Shown piece after piece: positions 1-5,918 of a DNA stretch of 25,864 bases. The stretch's first letter is position 1. Each line of letters opens with the position of its first letter. A program made the translations under genes and the position numbers. The DNA is taken from contig CALFKA010000304.1 in NCBI GenBank assembly GCA_937880545.1, positions 1-25,864 on the forward strand. The letters are read 5' to 3'. The DNA is from an uncultured Clostridia bacterium (GTDB taxonomy: Bacteria; Bacillota; Clostridia; Peptostreptococcales; Acidaminobacteraceae). The notes under the pieces are model-generated. The model was not told where the DNA came from and did not search any database. It saw only the letters and a program-made list of their open reading frames with translations.

Positions 1-87
1 TTAGCGCGCGCTCTACCTGAGATTTGGCAAGGCATTGTGACATCGCAATTGACTCACAGGAAGTCTCAAAGCTCCTGAGTCCAGTAG

Positions 88-1572
88 CTACATGGAGCCT
101 TCTTTCAGAAAAGCAGTATGCCAGGAAAGTGCTTCTTCCAGTAGATGCGGTTCGTGTCCACCGGTTAATTTCTGCGCCCGGTAAAGATAGTCGTAAAGCC
201 TCGACCGGAAGCTCGGGTGTGCGCAGTTTTCAATGATTGCTTCTGCCCTCATAACTGGAGAGAGACCTCGAAGGTCCGCCACCCCTTGCTCTGTGACAAA
301 GATATGTACATCGTGCTCTGAGTGATCAACATGCGACACCATCGGCACCACTGAGGACACCTTTCCTCCCACCGCGACGGAAGGAGCACTGAAGATGGAC
401 AGAGAAGCATTTCTGGCAAAGTCGCCGGATCCTCCGACACCGTTCATCAAGCGCGAACCGAAAAGGTGGGTGGAGTTCACATGGCCATAGATATCAATTT
501 CCAGCGCAGTGTTCATCGCGATGACCCCCAGCCGTCGAATAATCTCCGGATGGTTGGAAATCTCCATGGGACGCAGAACACAGCAAGAACGCAGCTCGTC
601 CAGATGTTCCAGAAGCCACTTCCGTTTGCTGCTTGAAGGCGTAAAGGAGGTGCCGGAGCTGAAGATGACCTTCCCCGACTCGATCAGTTCAAAAACCGAA
701 TCCTGAATGACTTCAGAATAGATGCTGACATCGGTAAAGTCCGACTCCGCCAGTCCAGAAAGCACGGCGTTGGCAACGGAGCCGACACCGGATTGTAGGG
801 GGAGCAGCTTCGCACTCAGTCTCCCAAGCGCGACCTCCCTTTCAAGAAAACGGATCAGGTGCCGGCTGATGCCTTGTGACACTTCGTCGACGACGGCGAG
901 ATCGCGCGGTGCATCTTCTATTTCCGTCTCCACCACCGCAATAATCTTCTCCGGATCACACGCCATATAAGGGACACCGATGCGCTCATGCACTTGGAAG
1001 ATGGGGATATCACTTGTGTTAGGCGGTCTCTTTGGCATGTAGATATCGTGTATCCCATATAGACCATCAGGCTGGGAGTGGTTGATCTCCACGATCACCT
1101 TTTTGGCGACTTTCAGCGCTGTCGGAGAGATTCCCACAGATGTGGTTGGGATGATACTCCCGTCTTCGAGGATCGCCAGCGCCTCTACGATCGCAAGATC
1201 CATCTCCCCGTAAAACCCCTGTTCCACCTGTTGGGGCAAATGAGAAAGATGTATATCACTGAAGTCGACCGTTCCATTATTGATAGCCTTTCGCATGTCC
1301 GGATTTGTTTGGTAAGGAATTCTCTTAGCGACAACTCCCGCCCGACTCAGGGCTCCATCCAGCTCATCCCCCACCGAGGCGCCTGTTAACAGGTTGATTC
1401 TCAACTTGTCACCCGCTTCAACGCGCTTGGCAAGAGCCATAGGAACAGCCTTGGGATACCCGCTTGGGGTAAATCCACTGGTGATAATGTTCATCCCGTC
1501 TTTTACCAGAAGAGCAGCATCTTCTGCGGACATGACCCTGGCAGCTGCGAGGGGGTTTCTTATGCGTCGCAT
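88..1572 (-). CDS. Family I acetyl-CoA hydrolase/CoA-transferase (succinate CoA-transferase-like; AarC/ScpC/Cat1 group), 494 aa
   Basis: Motifs SGFTPSGYPKAVP, TGASVG, LPLQSGVG, YSEVIQD (catalytic Glu region), NTALEIDIYGHVNS, GVGGSGDF. Start moved from 1584 to the ATG at 1572, which has GGAG upstream. Substrate cannot be read from sequence. Confidence 0.9.
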   Translation of the reverse strand: MRRIRNPLAAARVMSAEDAALLVKDGMNIITSGFTPSGYPKAVPMALAKRVEAGDKLRINLLTGASVGDELDGALSRAGVVAKRIPYQTNPDMRKAINNGTVDFSDIHLSHLPQQVEQGFYGEMDLAIVEALAILEDGSIIPTTSVGISPTALKVAKKVIVEINHSQPDGLYGIHDIYMPKRPPNTSDIPIFQVHERIGVPYMACDPEKIIAVVETEIEDAPRDLAVVDEVSQGISRHLIRFLEREVALGRLSAKLLPLQSGVGSVANAVLSGLAESDFTDVSIYSEVIQDSVFELIESGKVIFSSGTSFTPSSSKRKWLLEHLDELRSCCVLRPMEISNHPEIIRRLGVIAMNTALEIDIYGHVNSTHLFGSRLMNGVGGSGDFARNASLSIFSAPSVAVGGKVSSVVPMVSHVDHSEHDVHIFVTEQGVADLRGLSPVMRAEAIIENCAHPSFRSRLYDYLYRAQKLTGGHEPHLLEEALSWHTAFLKEGSM

Positions 1573-1634
1573 GTTCTTCTCCATAAATAAAAATTTTGGT
1601 GCGTAATTACATTACCCGAATTTCATTCACATTT

Positions 1635-1700
1635 CTATGGTTTTGCAGAAACGTTTTCATGCTTTCGATGAGGACAATATAAGTAGACGAGGAAATGCAT
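1635..1700 (-). CDS. Possible 21-aa upstream mini-ORF (MHFLVYLYCPHRKHENVSAKP)
   Basis: AAGGAGGTG Shine-Dalgarno (within 1709-1719), 8-nt spacer, ATG at 1700, TAG at 1637-1635. No recognisable homology. Confidence 0.25.
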   Translation of the reverse strand: MHFLVYLYCPHRKHENVSAKP

Positions 1701-1706
1701 TTTCCA
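1646..1706. promoter_or_regulatory. Two imperfect palindromes resembling cre/CcpA-type operators
   Basis: CAGAAACGTTTTCA (1646-1659) and GGAAATGCATTTTCCA (1691-1706), upstream of the CoA-transferase start; partial match to TGWAANCGNTNWCA. Confidence 0.3.
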
Positions 1707-2020
1707 AACACCTCCTTTTCCGGTCGATAAAAGGGCCGGTTGTTGGGGTTGTCTCCCGTATTTCGCCCGCTTATTGTTTCGTCACCCCTACATTCCGCGA
1801 TTTTTCTTTCATTGCTTGCGTACTTTCGACAAACTGTCAAAATGATTATTCCTTTCTCTCACTTGCCTGAGTCCTTGAAATATCCTTCTCGGCATGAAAA
1901 TAAGTAGCTCTCATCATTGCCGTTATGTGCATTTGTTAGTTATTAGGTACGCTTTTTGCTTATAACAGGGTGTACGAAAATTTGACGATTCGAATCCGCG
2001 GCAATTGTATGGCAATTATT

Positions 2021-2270
2021 GGAGGGATGGGGCCCAAATATGATTGCCAGCCGCCTCATCGCCGGCAGCCGGATAATTATACCGGCGCCTGCTGTCGGAA
2101 TCGCCCACCTGGTTCTCAAGATACTGAGAGACTCTTAGGGAATCAGGTCAGGGCATCCTTCCGTTCACTGTACAGCCTCAGTCGGGTCCTGTGGGAATGA
2201 TCCGACTGAGTGCTATACAGGAGACGTAACTCCGATCCGGTTTCACGGCACGGGCGCACGTACTGCCGGC
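2021..2270 (+). ncRNA. Candidate structured non-coding RNA of unrecognised family
   Basis: Manual fold gives several long stems (2107-2117/2138-2148, 2168-2220, 2061-2068/2263-2270, 2021-2029/2154-2162). Most non-Watson-Crick positions are G-U on the + strand. A terminator follows. No known family motif recognised. Confidence 0.4.
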
Positions 2271-2324
2271 AAAAGAAAAAATCGACTGAGAGTATCCTTA
2301 AGGGGTCTCAGTCGTTTTGTTTCT
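2271..2324. terminator. Bidirectional intrinsic terminator downstream of the decarboxylase beta gene
   Basis: Perfect 9-bp arms CGACTGAGA (2283-2291) / TCTCAGTCG (2306-2314), flanked by AAAAGAAAAAA on the left and TTTTGTTTCT on the right. Confidence 0.85.
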
Positions 2325-2363: not shown

Positions 2364-3569
2364 TCAAAGCCCTAGGAAAAAGGCAATGTAGAGACCCGTG
2401 ATGATGGCTGTCGTGATGACACCACTGACATTGGCTCCAATGGCATAGGGCAGGACGACCGCTCTGGGATTGACTCTTCCGACCTCGAGCTGAGCTACTT
2501 TTGCGGTGGTGGGTACACAGGAGACACCGGCGATCCCGACAACGGGATTAAACTTGCCACCACTGATGTAGTAAGCGAGATAGCCGCCGAGGATGCCCCC
2601 GATACCCGAAATGAGAAGCGCCAGCATACCAAGGACCAATAGTTTTACGATGGCAGGATTTAAGATAACCGACGCCTCACAGAGCACGCCGAGGAGAAGT
2701 CCCAGGAGGAACGTAGCAAAGTAGAGCACCGTGTTCTCCAGCATGTCGGCATATTTCTCCACATCCGCCTCGCGGATGGCCACGCCCAGGAAGAAACTAA
2801 GAAACAGCGGAGCAGCCATCGGAAACAGAAGACTTAGCAGAATACAGGCGATGATCGAGAAAGCCAGCTTTTCTACCCGAGTGACGGAAGCCACCCTGTT
2901 ACTGATCTTCGGTTTCACCTGCCGCAGCGTCTTAGGGATCATTAGGCGGATCAGGAAGGGGTACCCCCCATAAGTAAGGCTCAAATACAGATAGGCGACG
3001 ATCGTAATCGGTACAAACAACTCTCTGGCAAGTGTGAGAGAGGCAAAGAGAACCATCGGACCGTCTGCGCCACCGATCAATGCAGTAGCGGCTGCTTCGG
3101 AAGGGGTTAAGCCCAGCATCATGGCTACCGGTAAAATCAGAAGGGTTCCCAGCTCTGCACAAAATGCGATCAGCATGCTCGTAAACGGGTAAGCCAGAAC
3201 ATAGCTTACATCGGTCATCACACCGATACCGAGAAACACTAGACACGCCACCAGTCCATTACTAAAGGTAAAGGTATAGATCGGTTGCAGAAAGTCAATC
3301 TGCAAAATCTCCATCAGTTCGACCGTCTCAGTCGCCATCGGTTCAATAAAGATGGTTCCAATCTTAGTAGCGGACAGGTAGAGTACGGCAGAGTTGACAG
3401 CCGCCATACCAAAGCCCATGGGGATCATAATGAGGGGCTCAAGCACGCGCCTGGCTCCCAGATAAAATAAAACAATACCAAAAAGAATCAGAACAATACG
3501 CGCAATCGCTATCGCCGGCTGCACAGAAAAAAGAGTTGAGATGCCCTGAAAGAGCCTTGTTATATCCAC
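2364..3569 (-). CDS. Na+-translocating decarboxylase beta subunit (carboxybiotin decarboxylase, OadB/GcdB/MmdB/MadB family; MadB-like by recollection), 401 aa
   Basis: Polytopic membrane protein with LEPLIMIPMGFG, IGGADGP, FNPVVGIAGVSCVPT and GANVSGVI motifs. Start reassigned to the GTG at 3569 with AAGGAG upstream; the ORF-track start at 3710 overlaps another gene. Confidence 0.92.
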   Translation of the reverse strand: MDITRLFQGISTLFSVQPAIAIARIVLILFGIVLFYLGARRVLEPLIMIPMGFGMAAVNSAVLYLSATKIGTIFIEPMATETVELMEILQIDFLQPIYTFTFSNGLVACLVFLGIGVMTDVSYVLAYPFTSMLIAFCAELGTLLILPVAMMLGLTPSEAAATALIGGADGPMVLFASLTLARELFVPITIVAYLYLSLTYGGYPFLIRLMIPKTLRQVKPKISNRVASVTRVEKLAFSIIACILLSLLFPMAAPLFLSFFLGVAIREADVEKYADMLENTVLYFATFLLGLLLGVLCEASVILNPAIVKLLVLGMLALLISGIGGILGGYLAYYISGGKFNPVVGIAGVSCVPTTAKVAQLEVGRVNPRAVVLPYAIGANVSGVITTAIITGLYIAFFLGL

Positions 3570-3571
3570 AG

Positions 3572-3724
3572 TTACTCCTTTTTCACACCAGAAGTGGCGC
3601 TTCCTTTTCGAAGCGTCTTCTGCAAAACAGCGCGCAGTAGCGAGATCAGCACCGCCGTCAACACGGAAAAGACAAATGCCAGTGCCGCTATCTGAAGTGT
3701 CACCAACCAAATATTATTTATCAT
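3572..3724 (-). CDS. 50-aa single-pass membrane protein, probable accessory decarboxylase subunit (not in ORF track)
   Basis: ATG 3724 to TAA 3574-3572: MINNIWLVTLQIAALAFVFSVLTAVLISLLRAVLQKTLRKGSATSGVKKE. It fills the gap with 4 nt after the biotin-carrier stop and 2 nt before the beta GTG; its 3' end supplies the beta SD. Confidence 0.75.
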   Translation of the reverse strand: MINNIWLVTLQIAALAFVFSVLTAVLISLLRAVLQKTLRKGSATSGVKKE

Positions 3725-3728
3725 CTCA

Positions 3729-4124
3729 TCACCCAATAACGGCGATCACCTCGTCCGTGTCCACCAGCTGACCGGTCTTCACGAATAGTTGAGTAATCGT
3801 CCCACTTCTGTCAGCAAAGATGGTATTCTCCATCTTCATGGCTTCCAGGATCGCCACCGGTTCATCTTGGGCAACCTGAGTACCGACTTCCACGTGAATT
3901 TTTATGATCCTTCCGGACATGGGAGCCGTCACTTCCAGAGGCTCGTCTGATCCTTCAGTCACAATGGGTGCAGGGGCTACTGCCGGAATCTCGGGTACGA
4001 TGGGCGCAGGCGCCGCTGCCGGTATGGGTCGTGGTGCAGCCTTGGGCGCCTCCTGGGCCACTTCGATTTCTTCGACGTCGACCTCGTACACTTCCCCCTT
4101 GTATGTGATGCGCAGTCTTCTCAT
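3729..4124 (-). CDS. Biotin carboxyl carrier subunit of a Na+-pumping decarboxylase (MmdC/GcdC-like), 131 aa
   Basis: N-terminal RITYKGEVYEVDVEEI, Ala/Pro-rich linker, APMSGRI, and biotinylation motif EAMKM. Confidence 0.93.
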   Translation of the reverse strand: MRRLRITYKGEVYEVDVEEIEVAQEAPKAAPRPIPAAAPAPIVPEIPAVAPAPIVTEGSDEPLEVTAPMSGRIIKIHVEVGTQVAQDEPVAILEAMKMENTIFADRSGTITQLFVKTGQLVDTDEVIAVIG

Positions 4125-4396
4125 TCATCGGCTCCTTTCACGGTAATTTTTTTATTTGCTAAGTCATCAGTAACATAGGCGCTGACCGCTCCCAGTAGGA
4201 CAGGGATGGGAAGCCCTTCTTCTCCTGCCTCCACCCCAGCAAAGACGAGCTCCGGGGATCTTTTCGCTGCGCCCGGCTTCACAGTTTCTTCATCGTCTAG
4301 CAATTCGTGGCGCACATTTCTCACGAGCACCACAGCGCTGACAACAACAGCTACGGCAAGTGCCACAAGCCACGGGGTGGGCAACAATAGATTCAT
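4121..4396 (-). CDS. OadG/MmdD/GcdD-like delta (membrane anchor) subunit, 91 aa
   Basis: GGAGG 4 nt before the ATG at 4396; N-terminal hydrophobic helix, charged linker, second apolar helix PVLLGAVSAY; ATGA overlap with the biotin carrier. Confidence 0.7.
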   Translation of the reverse strand: MNLLLPTPWLVALAVAVVVSAVVLVRNVRHELLDDEETVKPGAAKRSPELVFAGVEAGEEGLPIPVLLGAVSAYVTDDLANKKITVKGADE

Positions 4397-4430
4397 AATA
4401 CCTCCAGCCAACGATATATTTCTTCTCTGG

Positions 4431-4804
4431 TGAAACAGTTGCATTCTAACGGGGGCAATAGATATACTACACGAAAAAGTCTTCCTTCTGCTGCGGAGTT
4501 ACTCCTCTTTGCAACAGCTTTCAGGCTACTTAACGATATCACGATTCCACCGCTTCATCAACCACAACGCCCACCCCTGAAGAAAGAAATAATCGCAGAA
4601 AAGGATCCGTTTTTCGTGAGCATATCAGAGCAAAAACCAACTGATACACCGGATTATTTAAGACTCCGCCTCAGGTATTAAAGGATCAAACAAATACCGA
4701 AACCGCGGAAGGAATGGAAGCTAGAAGAAGAAAATATAGTGAGTACGACCCTCAGATGAAAAGCCACTATATAAGTGTGTATTATCATGTTCTCAACAGT
4801 TTCA
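4431..4804. promoter_or_regulatory. Repeated operator-like motif CAAC(A/T)G(C)TTTCA in the decarboxylase upstream region
   Basis: Copies at 4431-4441 (-), 4512-4523 (+) and 4794-4804 (+). 4510-4523 reads TGAAAGCTGTTGCA on the - strand, 12/14 to the cre consensus. Confidence 0.3.
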
Positions 4805-4914
4805 ACTACTGGACGCCTAAGAAAGTGTAGCAGATCCAGCTTTGCAGATCATTCGTTGACGGCTAAGAAGAAGAATCACTCTCCAAAATGGTCTGTCATC
4901 CCAGAAGACAACAA

Positions 4915-4945
4915 ACGCCACGCCCCTACCGAAGGGGAATGGCGT
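4915..4945 (-). terminator. Probable intrinsic terminator after the AEC transporter gene
   Basis: ACGCCA/TGGCGT outer stem and CCCCT/AGGGG inner stem; on the - strand followed by TTGTTGTCTTCT; about 50 nt past the stop. Confidence 0.65.
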
Positions 4946-4997
4946 CTTCTTTTCTCTTCACCTGATGCTATTGTCATACCGAAGAGGCGTGATCCAA

Positions 4998-5918
4998 TCA
5001 GCCTCCCAGGGCGATGAACTCTATTAGAAGAGGGATGGTGACCAGCGCGAGGAGAGTGGAGATCAGGACGAGCTTCGTGGCCGTCTTATAGTCTTTTCCA
5101 TACACCTGAGCAAGTATCACCGTATTGGCTGCCAGAGGCATGCCGAAAAGCACGACCGGCACGTACAATATCAGTCCCGAGAACCCCAGAGATTTTAGAA
5201 TGAAGAACAGAGCCAGCGGAAAAAGGACACTGCGGTAGATAGCCAGGACAAACGGTTTGATCGATGTCACAAGCTCTTTCAGATGGATCTCTGCCATCAT
5301 AATCCCGATGACAAACATCGTCAGCGGGGTGGCGGTTCCGCCCAACGCGGCAAACATGCGCTCCATCACAGAAGGCAGAGGCACCGAAAAGAAAAAGAGC
5401 GTAAAACCGACCACCAGCGCTATGGTGCTGGGATTGATCATCGCCTTCCAGTTGACGTGCGTTGCTTCATCACGGGTATAGACGTACACACCGTATGTCC
5501 AGTTGACGACGAGAAAGAAGAAGTGGATGATGGTGCCGTAAAAGACCGCCTCCTGCCCATAGGTGACAGACAAGATCGGCAGCCCTAGAAAGCCGGTATT
5601 GGAGAGCACCATCCCAAAATGATAACTCGCCCTTTCTTCATCGGGGAGTCGCCACCACTTGGCACTCAGTTCTGACAAAATGATGGAGACAGCAAATACC
5701 ACCCCTCCAATGACCAGCATGGTGATGGCATTTTGAAGCAGACGAGTTTCAAAGGTAAAGCGCAGGTTTGTCAGGATCATCATCGGCAGTGCGATATTGA
5801 TCGTATACAGGCTCAGAACCGCTCTTGCATCCTCTCCCAAGAGTTTTAATTTCCTTGCAGAAAAGCCCACCATGATGATCAGAAACAAGTAGAGAATATT
5901 TTCAAAGTTATTGTTCAT
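4998..5918 (-). CDS. AEC (auxin efflux carrier) family transporter, 306 aa
   Basis: About 10 hydrophobic segments; NIALPMMI, SNTGFLGLPI, LGGTATPLTMFVIG and MPLAANTVILA motifs typical of the family. Confidence 0.88.
   Translation of the reverse strand: MNNNFENILYLFLIIMVGFSARKLKLLGEDARAVLSLYTINIALPMMILTNLRFTFETRLLQNAITMLVIGGVVFAVSIILSELSAKWWRLPDEERASYHFGMVLSNTGFLGLPILSVTYGQEAVFYGTIIHFFFLVVNWTYGVYVYTRDEATHVNWKAMINPSTIALVVGFTLFFFSVPLPSVMERMFAALGGTATPLTMFVIGIMMAEIHLKELVTSIKPFVLAIYRSVLFPLALFFILKSLGFSGLILYVPVVLFGMPLAANTVILAQVYGKDYKTATKLVLISTLLALVTIPLLIEFIALGG

Follow-up and report, generated by a model that had tools for sequence, protein, structure and literature searches.

The 790-nt gap between a CoA-transferase gene and the beta-subunit gene of a Na+-translocating decarboxylase, in a Bacillota MAG of 2.0 Mb (304 contigs, 94% complete), holds a 210-nt core whose fold is real and exceptional, largely as an initial annotation of this DNA had observed. 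We tentatively read this core as the structured 5′-terminal leader of the CoA-transferase mRNA, transcribed from the minus strand and probably protecting the 5′ end of the message; the independent plus-strand sRNA that the annotation had proposed is a less likely reading.

The window, that is, the whole stretch of DNA analyzed, covers 25,864 nt and lies at the start of a 25.9-kb contig. The gap (1573-2363) separates two genes that both lie on the minus strand, so that on this strand it is at once 3′ of the decarboxylase operon and 5′ of the CoA-transferase gene (Table 1). The closest named relatives of the CoA-transferase come from MAGs labelled “Tissierellia bacterium”. The beta subunit is the last gene of an operon that runs delta, biotin-carrier, small-peptide, beta. 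The list of open reading frames stretches the beta gene (2364-3710) to 448 aa, against 398-406 aa in the public calls and in all close relatives; in the relatives a separate 39-aa gene sits just upstream of the beta gene, which agrees with a hidden small membrane-protein gene.

Table 1. Features of the gap and its flanking genes, in window coordinates
Feature	Coordinates	Strand	Remarks
Succinyl-CoA:acetate CoA-transferase family gene	88-1572	-	AcetylCoA_hydro N and C domains; likely start ATG 1572, preceded by GGAG
AT-rich unstructured remainder of the spacer	1573-2020	-	GC 0.38-0.44; covered by contig L148
Weak hairpin with GGAGGG on + (CCCTCC on -)	2021-2060	none assigned	Outside the significant structure
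Structured core, 210 nt	2061-2270	-	P1 and four hairpins; strand from transcript evidence, not thermodynamics
RNA end in metatranscriptome run X1	2268-2270	-	One low-depth contig, L148
Bidirectional intrinsic terminator hairpin	2276-2323	both	Stem CGACTGAGA/TCTCAGTCG
Na+-translocating decarboxylase beta subunit	2364-3569	-	Stop codon 2364-2366; 401 aa in public gene calls (P0001), from which length the start coordinate (3569) is derived

A check of the sequence, together with folding, recovers every helix that the initial annotation had listed, each where it had been placed. The core is closed by P1, an 8-bp helix (GCCGGCAG/CTGCCGGC, 2061-2068/2263-2270), inside which stand four hairpins: H1 (2066-2089), H2 (2094-2161, with 24 pairs around 2107-2148), H3 (2162-2221, with 21 pairs over 2168-2220) and a fourth at 2222-2262. 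The CCGG hairpin at 2069-2085 and the nested hairpin at 2224-2261 are both present, as is the long-range pair GGAGGGATG/CATCCTTCC (2021-2029/2154-2162), and the minus-strand consensus fold of the core comprises 75 pairs. The dense structure that had been described is borne out on both strands, its MFE lying far below that of dinucleotide shuffles, with z-scores of -6.35 (+) and -6.92 (-) over 2015-2325 and of -6.4 (+) and -6.2 (-) over the core. The proposed extent of the element, 2021-2324, needs trimming: the core at 2061-2270 is structured as claimed, but inclusion of 2021-2060 dilutes the signal (z -4.3 (+) and -4.4 (-) for 2021-2270), and the rest of the spacer (1585-2020) is unstructured (z 0.1 (+), -1.1 (-)). 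The GC content of the core is 0.545, as opposed to 0.38-0.44 in the adjoining spacer.

How unusual is such a fold in this genome? When 4000 windows of 250 nt, spread over the 2-Mb genome, were scored with a correction for GC content, a single window scored lower, inside a long open frame, which leaves the element as the top non-coding window sampled; the next-best non-coding windows are ordinary terminator clusters, and Rfam has no match for any of the top windows. Another two windows without coding sequence but rich in hairpins (G000:C91:7950-8300 and G000:C120:5450-5800, z about -3.4 and -3.2, respectively) each contain several terminator-like hairpins and likewise have no Rfam match.

The structure signal is carried by the four local hairpins. 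A perfect 8-bp pair like P1 occurs in 20% of dinucleotide shuffles, and a 9-bp pair with one G-U, like 2021-2029/2154-2162, in 24%; each of the two crossing long-range helices is within chance (P about 0.2), and the pseudoknot that had been drawn from them is without statistical support. The wobble pairs, said by the initial annotation to favor mostly the plus strand, do so for H2 only, where two G-U pairs are workable on that strand alone; the hairpin at 2222-2262 favors the minus strand and the other hairpins are equal. The core is 6 kcal/mol more stable on the plus strand (MFE -101.6 kcal/mol, vs. -95.7 on the minus). We considered choosing the strand from wobble pairs or energy and abandoned it, neither strand being clearly favored.

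H3 (2177-2210) and the terminator hairpin (2283-2314) are built on one pair of 8-bp stem words, CTCAGTCG/CGACTGAG, whose order is exchanged between them, and are the only two hairpins with this stem in the 2-Mb genome. This sharing of words is only marginally beyond chance, and the similarities between hairpins are generally marginal (P 0.03-0.05 before correction for 20 tests). A terminator/antiterminator switch operating through the common 8-mer was also considered and rejected, because H3 greatly exceeds in stability the 8-9 bp helix that would compete with it and because the shared word hardly rises above chance.

The hairpin at 2276-2323 has a stem of 9-10 bp and a stability of -19.8 kcal/mol on the plus strand and -16.9 on the minus. 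Read on the minus strand, it begins 40 nt past the beta-subunit stop codon and runs into the tail TTTTTTCTTTT; its plus-strand tail is TTTTGTTTC. A G+C-rich stem, a U-run directly after it and a position past a stop codon are thus all present, as expected of an intrinsic terminator; a consensus terminator scan missed it, its loop being longer than 8 nt. Of the two U-tails the minus-strand one is the better, and the hairpin is above all an intrinsic terminator serving the decarboxylase operon on that strand. The annotation had seen in it a U-tailed terminator following the plus-strand element; the hairpin and a usable plus-strand U-tail do exist, but the primary role belongs to the operon on the other strand, and since the operon requires this terminator, no sRNA is needed to explain it. 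A promoter scan returned no promoter-like site on either strand of 1500-2500, and neither the scan nor reading by eye found a sigma-70-like promoter upstream of 2270. The TTGACG at 1982-1987 that had been noted as a possible -35 hexamer is present and, as had also been noted, is without a proper partner hexamer; the same is true of a TATAAC at 1961-1966, read by eye. The scan also found no minus-strand terminator-like site between 2060 and 1573.

The strand assignment comes from transcript evidence. In a mud metatranscriptome (run X1), 80% of the sampled words of 1600-2400 are present, and one Logan contig of 2250 nt, L148 (word depth 3), matches window positions 27-2270 with no gap and three differences. 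It takes in the CoA-transferase gene, all of the AT-rich spacer and the core, with the qualification that one contig over two features, as this one is, need not mean one transcript. As strand information is missing from Logan contigs, the minus strand is read only from the continuity with the CoA-transferase gene. The first bases of the contig are CGATCT, which in reverse complement is AGATCG, the start of the Illumina adapter (adapter read-through); from there on the contig reads as the minus strand of the window, beginning at G2270; in the same run a loose end, ACAGATCG, stands behind 2268. As the adapter remnant lies directly before G2270, at least one cDNA fragment ended exactly there, though at a word depth of 3 this end may reflect very few molecules or PCR copies. 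G2270 is the outermost nucleotide of P1 and directly follows the terminator U-tract. Depth in X1 is zero over 2287-2700, leaving the decarboxylase gene and the terminator hairpin uncovered in this one low-depth run, and this silence argues against contaminating DNA.

The three differences between the contig and the window all fall within the first 28 nt of L148, the remaining 2216 nt being identical, and they may be contig-end artefacts. Taken as variants, they affect the two strands differently. On the minus strand, C2269U forms a G-U pair with 2062 and keeps P1, and with AU in place of UG at 2250-2249, two Watson-Crick pairs form where there had been a 2x2 internal loop; the architecture stays the same and the MFE moves from -95.7 to -98.0, a gain of 2.3 kcal/mol. 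On the plus strand the variants introduce an A.C mismatch and rearrange the fold, breaking P1 and the long-range helix.

These observations are the basis of our tentative reading of the core as a minus-strand leader. In its favor, L148 ends just where P1 has its outer base and where the U-tract stops, and the variant bases keep or improve the minus-strand fold and not the plus-strand one; against it, thermodynamics do not favor the minus strand, and P1 taken alone is within chance. In such a transcript the core (2270 to 2061) would come first, followed by approximately 450 nt of AT-rich spacer and then the CoA-transferase gene. The mRNA 5′ end at 2270 could mark transcription initiation but more probably marks the place at which a very stable helix halts 5′-to-3′ trimming; as no sigma-70-type promoter is visible upstream of 2270, we infer trimming up to the first stable helix. 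The substrate would be a weakly initiated or read-through transcript, and the agent an exonuclease of the RNase J1 type, which performs such trimming in Bacillota. By analogy, the 5′-terminal domain would prolong the life of the mRNA in the manner of the stem-loops of aprE-type leaders, the aprE leader itself being reportedly the subject of a 2002 study by Hambraeus. The domain may, in addition, insulate the CoA-transferase gene from the upstream terminator.

Protection of mRNAs by 5′-terminal stem-loops, and the 5′-exonuclease RNase J1, have been reviewed (PMC3997798). The core would resemble the Bacillota 5′ stabilizers of the aprE leader type covered there in that a stable helix lies at or near the observed RNA 5′ end, in that it stands far upstream of the coding region on what would be the same transcript, and in that the phylum uses RNase J1. 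It differs from them in size, since those are single short hairpins whereas the core is a 210-nt domain of four hairpins, and also in that its 5′ end rests on one contig and that the domain is unconserved even within the genus. If the leader reading is true, this would be an unusually large and very recent protective RNA domain at a 5′ terminus.

Is the element found anywhere else? No homologue appeared in 226 related genomes, in 100-130 flanking-gene loci or in phage, plasmid and viral collections, so that the homologues on which the initial annotation had meant to build a covariation analysis are missing from everything searched. BLAST of the element in 60 relatives returned nothing, and nhmmer and blastn across 80 loci around relatives of the beta subunit returned no element. 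A covariance model, R1, built on the 75-pair minus-strand consensus fold, retrieved nothing beyond the element itself when run on 100 loci and on the genomes of 76 members of the family and 150 of the order. The phage and plasmid collections gave no element match, the viral contigs, scanned with two patterns, gave none either, and a metagenome pattern scan yielded, among the matches listed, unrelated hairpins only. In metagenome contigs L150-L229 the pattern CTCAGTCGG-N10-CCGACTGAG caught an unrelated repeat family with a conserved flank, GCGCATCCTCGCGGAGCGTTTAA, beside its hairpin; the family often sits at contig ends in some assemblies and looks like a mobile-element end.

The neighborhood of the nearest relatives is equally bare. 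The closest beta gene (87% identical) is followed by an unrelated 225-nt spacer without the element, and a 76%-identical beta gene likewise has no copy downstream. Nor does the element precede the CoA-transferase gene in either same-genus genome, G001 or G002 (genes 73-75% identical), or a 79%-identical CoA-transferase relative (P0122). The leaders of these three CoA-transferase genes are short or unstructured (z +0.89 in G002), so that, judging from orthologue leaders, the domain is dispensable for expression of this gene family; any selected function for it is hypothetical. Nor does the element resemble a conserved regulator: sister species are without it, which speaks for a young, lineage-specific addition.

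Where such an addition may have come from is suggested by G001 (locus L115, G001:C116), in which an AEC-family transporter gene lies directly upstream of the CoA-transferase gene across a gap of 150 nt. This transporter is 56% identical to the product of window positions 4998-5918, and here the two genes are held apart by the decarboxylase module (2364-4444) and spacers of 553 nt and 790 nt, approximately 3.4 kb including the element. Because the two genes are adjacent in G001, the module together with the element looks recently inserted in the present genome, or else deleted in G001; no terminal inverted or direct repeats flank the inserted module. As far as the genomes compared can tell, the element is unique to one species, lineage-specific and placed at the edge of the inserted segment. 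Under the leader reading, the domain would then have arisen at the seam of the decarboxylase insertion beside the CoA-transferase gene, as a natural example of how a leader originates.

The other spacer of the module holds a difference of its own. In three relatives whose beta genes are 76-87% identical (L140, L141 and L143), CT_C_D (PF02682) and/or CT_A_B (PF02626) genes, which encode carboxyltransferase subunits of the allophanate-hydrolase or 5-oxoprolinase type, stand directly upstream of the delta gene, and the order continues as delta, biotin-carrier, 39-aa peptide and beta. In the window, a non-coding gap of 553 nt (4445-4997) takes the place of the CT genes, which bears on a module without carboxyltransferase.

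The same lack of relatives feeds the alternative that survives best, which we consider somewhat unlikely: a neutral, young hairpin cluster, generated by local inverted duplications or template switches in the spacer left by insertion of the module, and transcribed because of where it lies, without a selected function as RNA or DNA. A homologue exists nowhere among the relatives, flanking-gene loci and phage, plasmid and viral collections searched; the element is missing beside the 87%-identical beta gene and the 73-79%-identical CoA-transferase genes; and it sits, by comparison with G001, at the border of an insertion. Folding is about as good on one strand as on the other and runs through long, near-perfect Watson-Crick stems, as inverted repeats at the DNA level would, and H3 and the terminator have an 8-mer pair in common. 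Template switching is reportedly documented as a one-step source of hairpins (PMC8794818). The likeness to hairpins of that origin extends to the long near-perfect stems, the strand-equal folding, the lineage-specific spacer and the lack of homologues; on the other side, a donor or source copy could not be identified here and the internal similarities are marginal. Four adjacent strong hairpins and a closing helix that ends at the RNA end go, however, beyond the order expected of one or two template switches, the similarity from hairpin to hairpin is marginal, the core departs in GC content from its spacer, and the fold is the most extreme non-coding one in the genome sample. Should the cluster nonetheless be neutral, a z-score of about -6 for the MFE of a GC-rich, non-coding island would be insufficient for calling an RNA gene. 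Under either reading, no new conserved RNA family is defined, and no open question hinges on the element.

The plus-strand sRNA of the initial annotation would be approximately 250-350 nt long, start from a promoter near 1960-2010, end at 2276-2323 and converge with the decarboxylase operon. It is favored by the slightly better plus-strand energy and the two plus-only G-U pairs of H2, by the usable plus-strand U-tail, by the TTGACG and TATAAC hexamers, and by a layout, structured body and then terminator, that is classical for an sRNA. It is nevertheless distinctly unlikely, and as a free-standing transcript it does not fit the RNA evidence: L148 is continuous with the CoA-transferase gene through the approximately 700-nt spacer, including 1573-2020, a stretch expected to yield no RNA if it separated an sRNA from a divergent mRNA, and it stops at G2270 short of the terminator hairpin that the sRNA would carry. 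Thus the transcript over body and terminator that an sRNA gene calls for is replaced, in this one low-depth run, by one that ends at 2270, and the promoter of its own by 0 sites in the scan of 1500-2500. The X1 variants, moreover, break P1 and the long-range helix on the plus strand, and the element is unconserved in all relatives searched. Orphan trans-acting sRNAs with Rho-independent termination are alike in their non-coding body, plus-strand hairpin with U-tail and lack of a family match; the present case is unlike them in having no promoter, in RNA evidence that misses the terminator and joins the neighboring mRNA, and in a hairpin that is already explained as the operon terminator of the other strand.

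A bolder version of the leader reading strikes us as very improbable. In it, the domain would be a lineage-specific functional RNA whose 5′ end at G2270 results from site-specific cleavage, by the RNA itself or by an RNase, just past the terminator of the decarboxylase operon; read-through transcripts would in this way become a stable CoA-transferase mRNA, and the two steps of a sodium-linked decarboxylation pathway would be coupled post-transcriptionally.

Coding content offers little foothold for other readings. That the gap has no credible long ORF, as the annotation had judged, agrees with our searches: its small ORFs are without Pfam or homology signal, nine of them having been run against Pfam with no match, and a tblastx comparison of the spacer with the genome and with every locus retrieved brought up no pseudogene relic. 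With the longest frame (76 aa), an exhaustive phmmer search gave only two matches at E 1e-4, to a tandem-repeat “protein” that is itself spurious, their scores being raised artificially by nine repeated stretches of 20 aa. Gram-positive type I toxin-antitoxin systems typically have bidirectional terminators and strongly folded mRNAs, and a plus-strand toxin mRNA of this kind could be imagined, encoding a peptide of 32-39 aa at 2019/2040-2138, with GGAGGG sequestered and an antisense RNA using the bidirectional terminator. A small ORF does follow GGAGGG, which is paired in plus-strand folds, and the likeness to the mRNAs of the Fst/RNA I, TxpA and BsrG types includes a length of approximately 300 nt, strong folding, a sequestered ribosome-binding site, the small ORF and the bidirectional terminator; but the spacing from GGAGGG to ATG 2040 is poor (13 nt), two Arg among the first 11 residues of the peptide and two Pro inside its hydrophobic stretch mean that it is not a clean transmembrane helix, the 39-aa ORF has no Pfam match and an Atlas best match of 0.89 to an unnamed cluster, and there is neither a relative nor a second promoter nor, in contrast to those systems, an antisense partner shown, so that with transcript evidence standing as for the sRNA we find this reading extremely improbable.

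No known family was expected from the initial annotation, and none was found: Rfam 15, whose families cover SRP, 6S, RNase P, tmRNA, T-box, riboswitches and ribozymes (glmS, HDV-like, hatchet), gives 0 matches at gathering threshold across the window and, at E up to 10, only chance-level matches in the terminator region (2237-2327) and none inside 2021-2236; ARAGORN found no tRNA or tmRNA. Dispersed copies, which would have marked a DNA repeat, are likewise absent: by BLAST, short-word BLAST and hairpin-pattern search the element is single-copy in the 304-contig, 94%-complete assembly and is therefore not a REP or MITE. Searches of the G000 assembly itself with the Rfam models for 6S RNA and for the large and small SRP RNAs (RF00013, RF01854, RF00169) came back empty, the genes being probably in its unassembled 6%; the same-genus G001 and G002 have a canonical large SRP RNA (188-196 bits). 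A disguised SRP RNA was considered and rejected, as R1 matches none of the G001 and G002 SRP RNAs, and a disguised 6S RNA was rejected along with it after the searches of the genome with the three models. That the element belongs to some known or dispersed class (REP/MITE repeat, retron msr-msd, integron attC, SRP or 6S RNA, riboswitch) is accordingly hardly credible: the hairpin-rich anatomy fits loosely, and a divergent copy could hide in an assembly that has no SRP or 6S match, but the element is single-copy, has no Rfam match inside 2021-2270 even at E up to 10, is unmatched as R1 by same-genus SRP RNAs of approximately 190 bits, has no reverse transcriptase or integrase gene adjacent, offers a riboswitch no expression platform after it on the minus strand, with the start codon some 450 nt away, and is not conserved, as a riboswitch or cis-regulatory leader might be, ahead of the G001, G002 and P0122 CoA-transferase genes. 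Readings outside those considered here share the small remainder of the probability.

One further feature lies within the stretch covered by RNA contig L148. A 21-codon ORF (MHFLVYLYCPHRKHENVSAKP, 1634-1699 on the minus strand) lies 62 nt upstream of the CoA-transferase start; it has no Pfam match. A near-perfect ribosome-binding site, AAAGGAGGTG, precedes its ATG by approximately 8-10 nt, accompanied by a small CCGG hairpin, and the ORF could be a leader peptide or a small protein.
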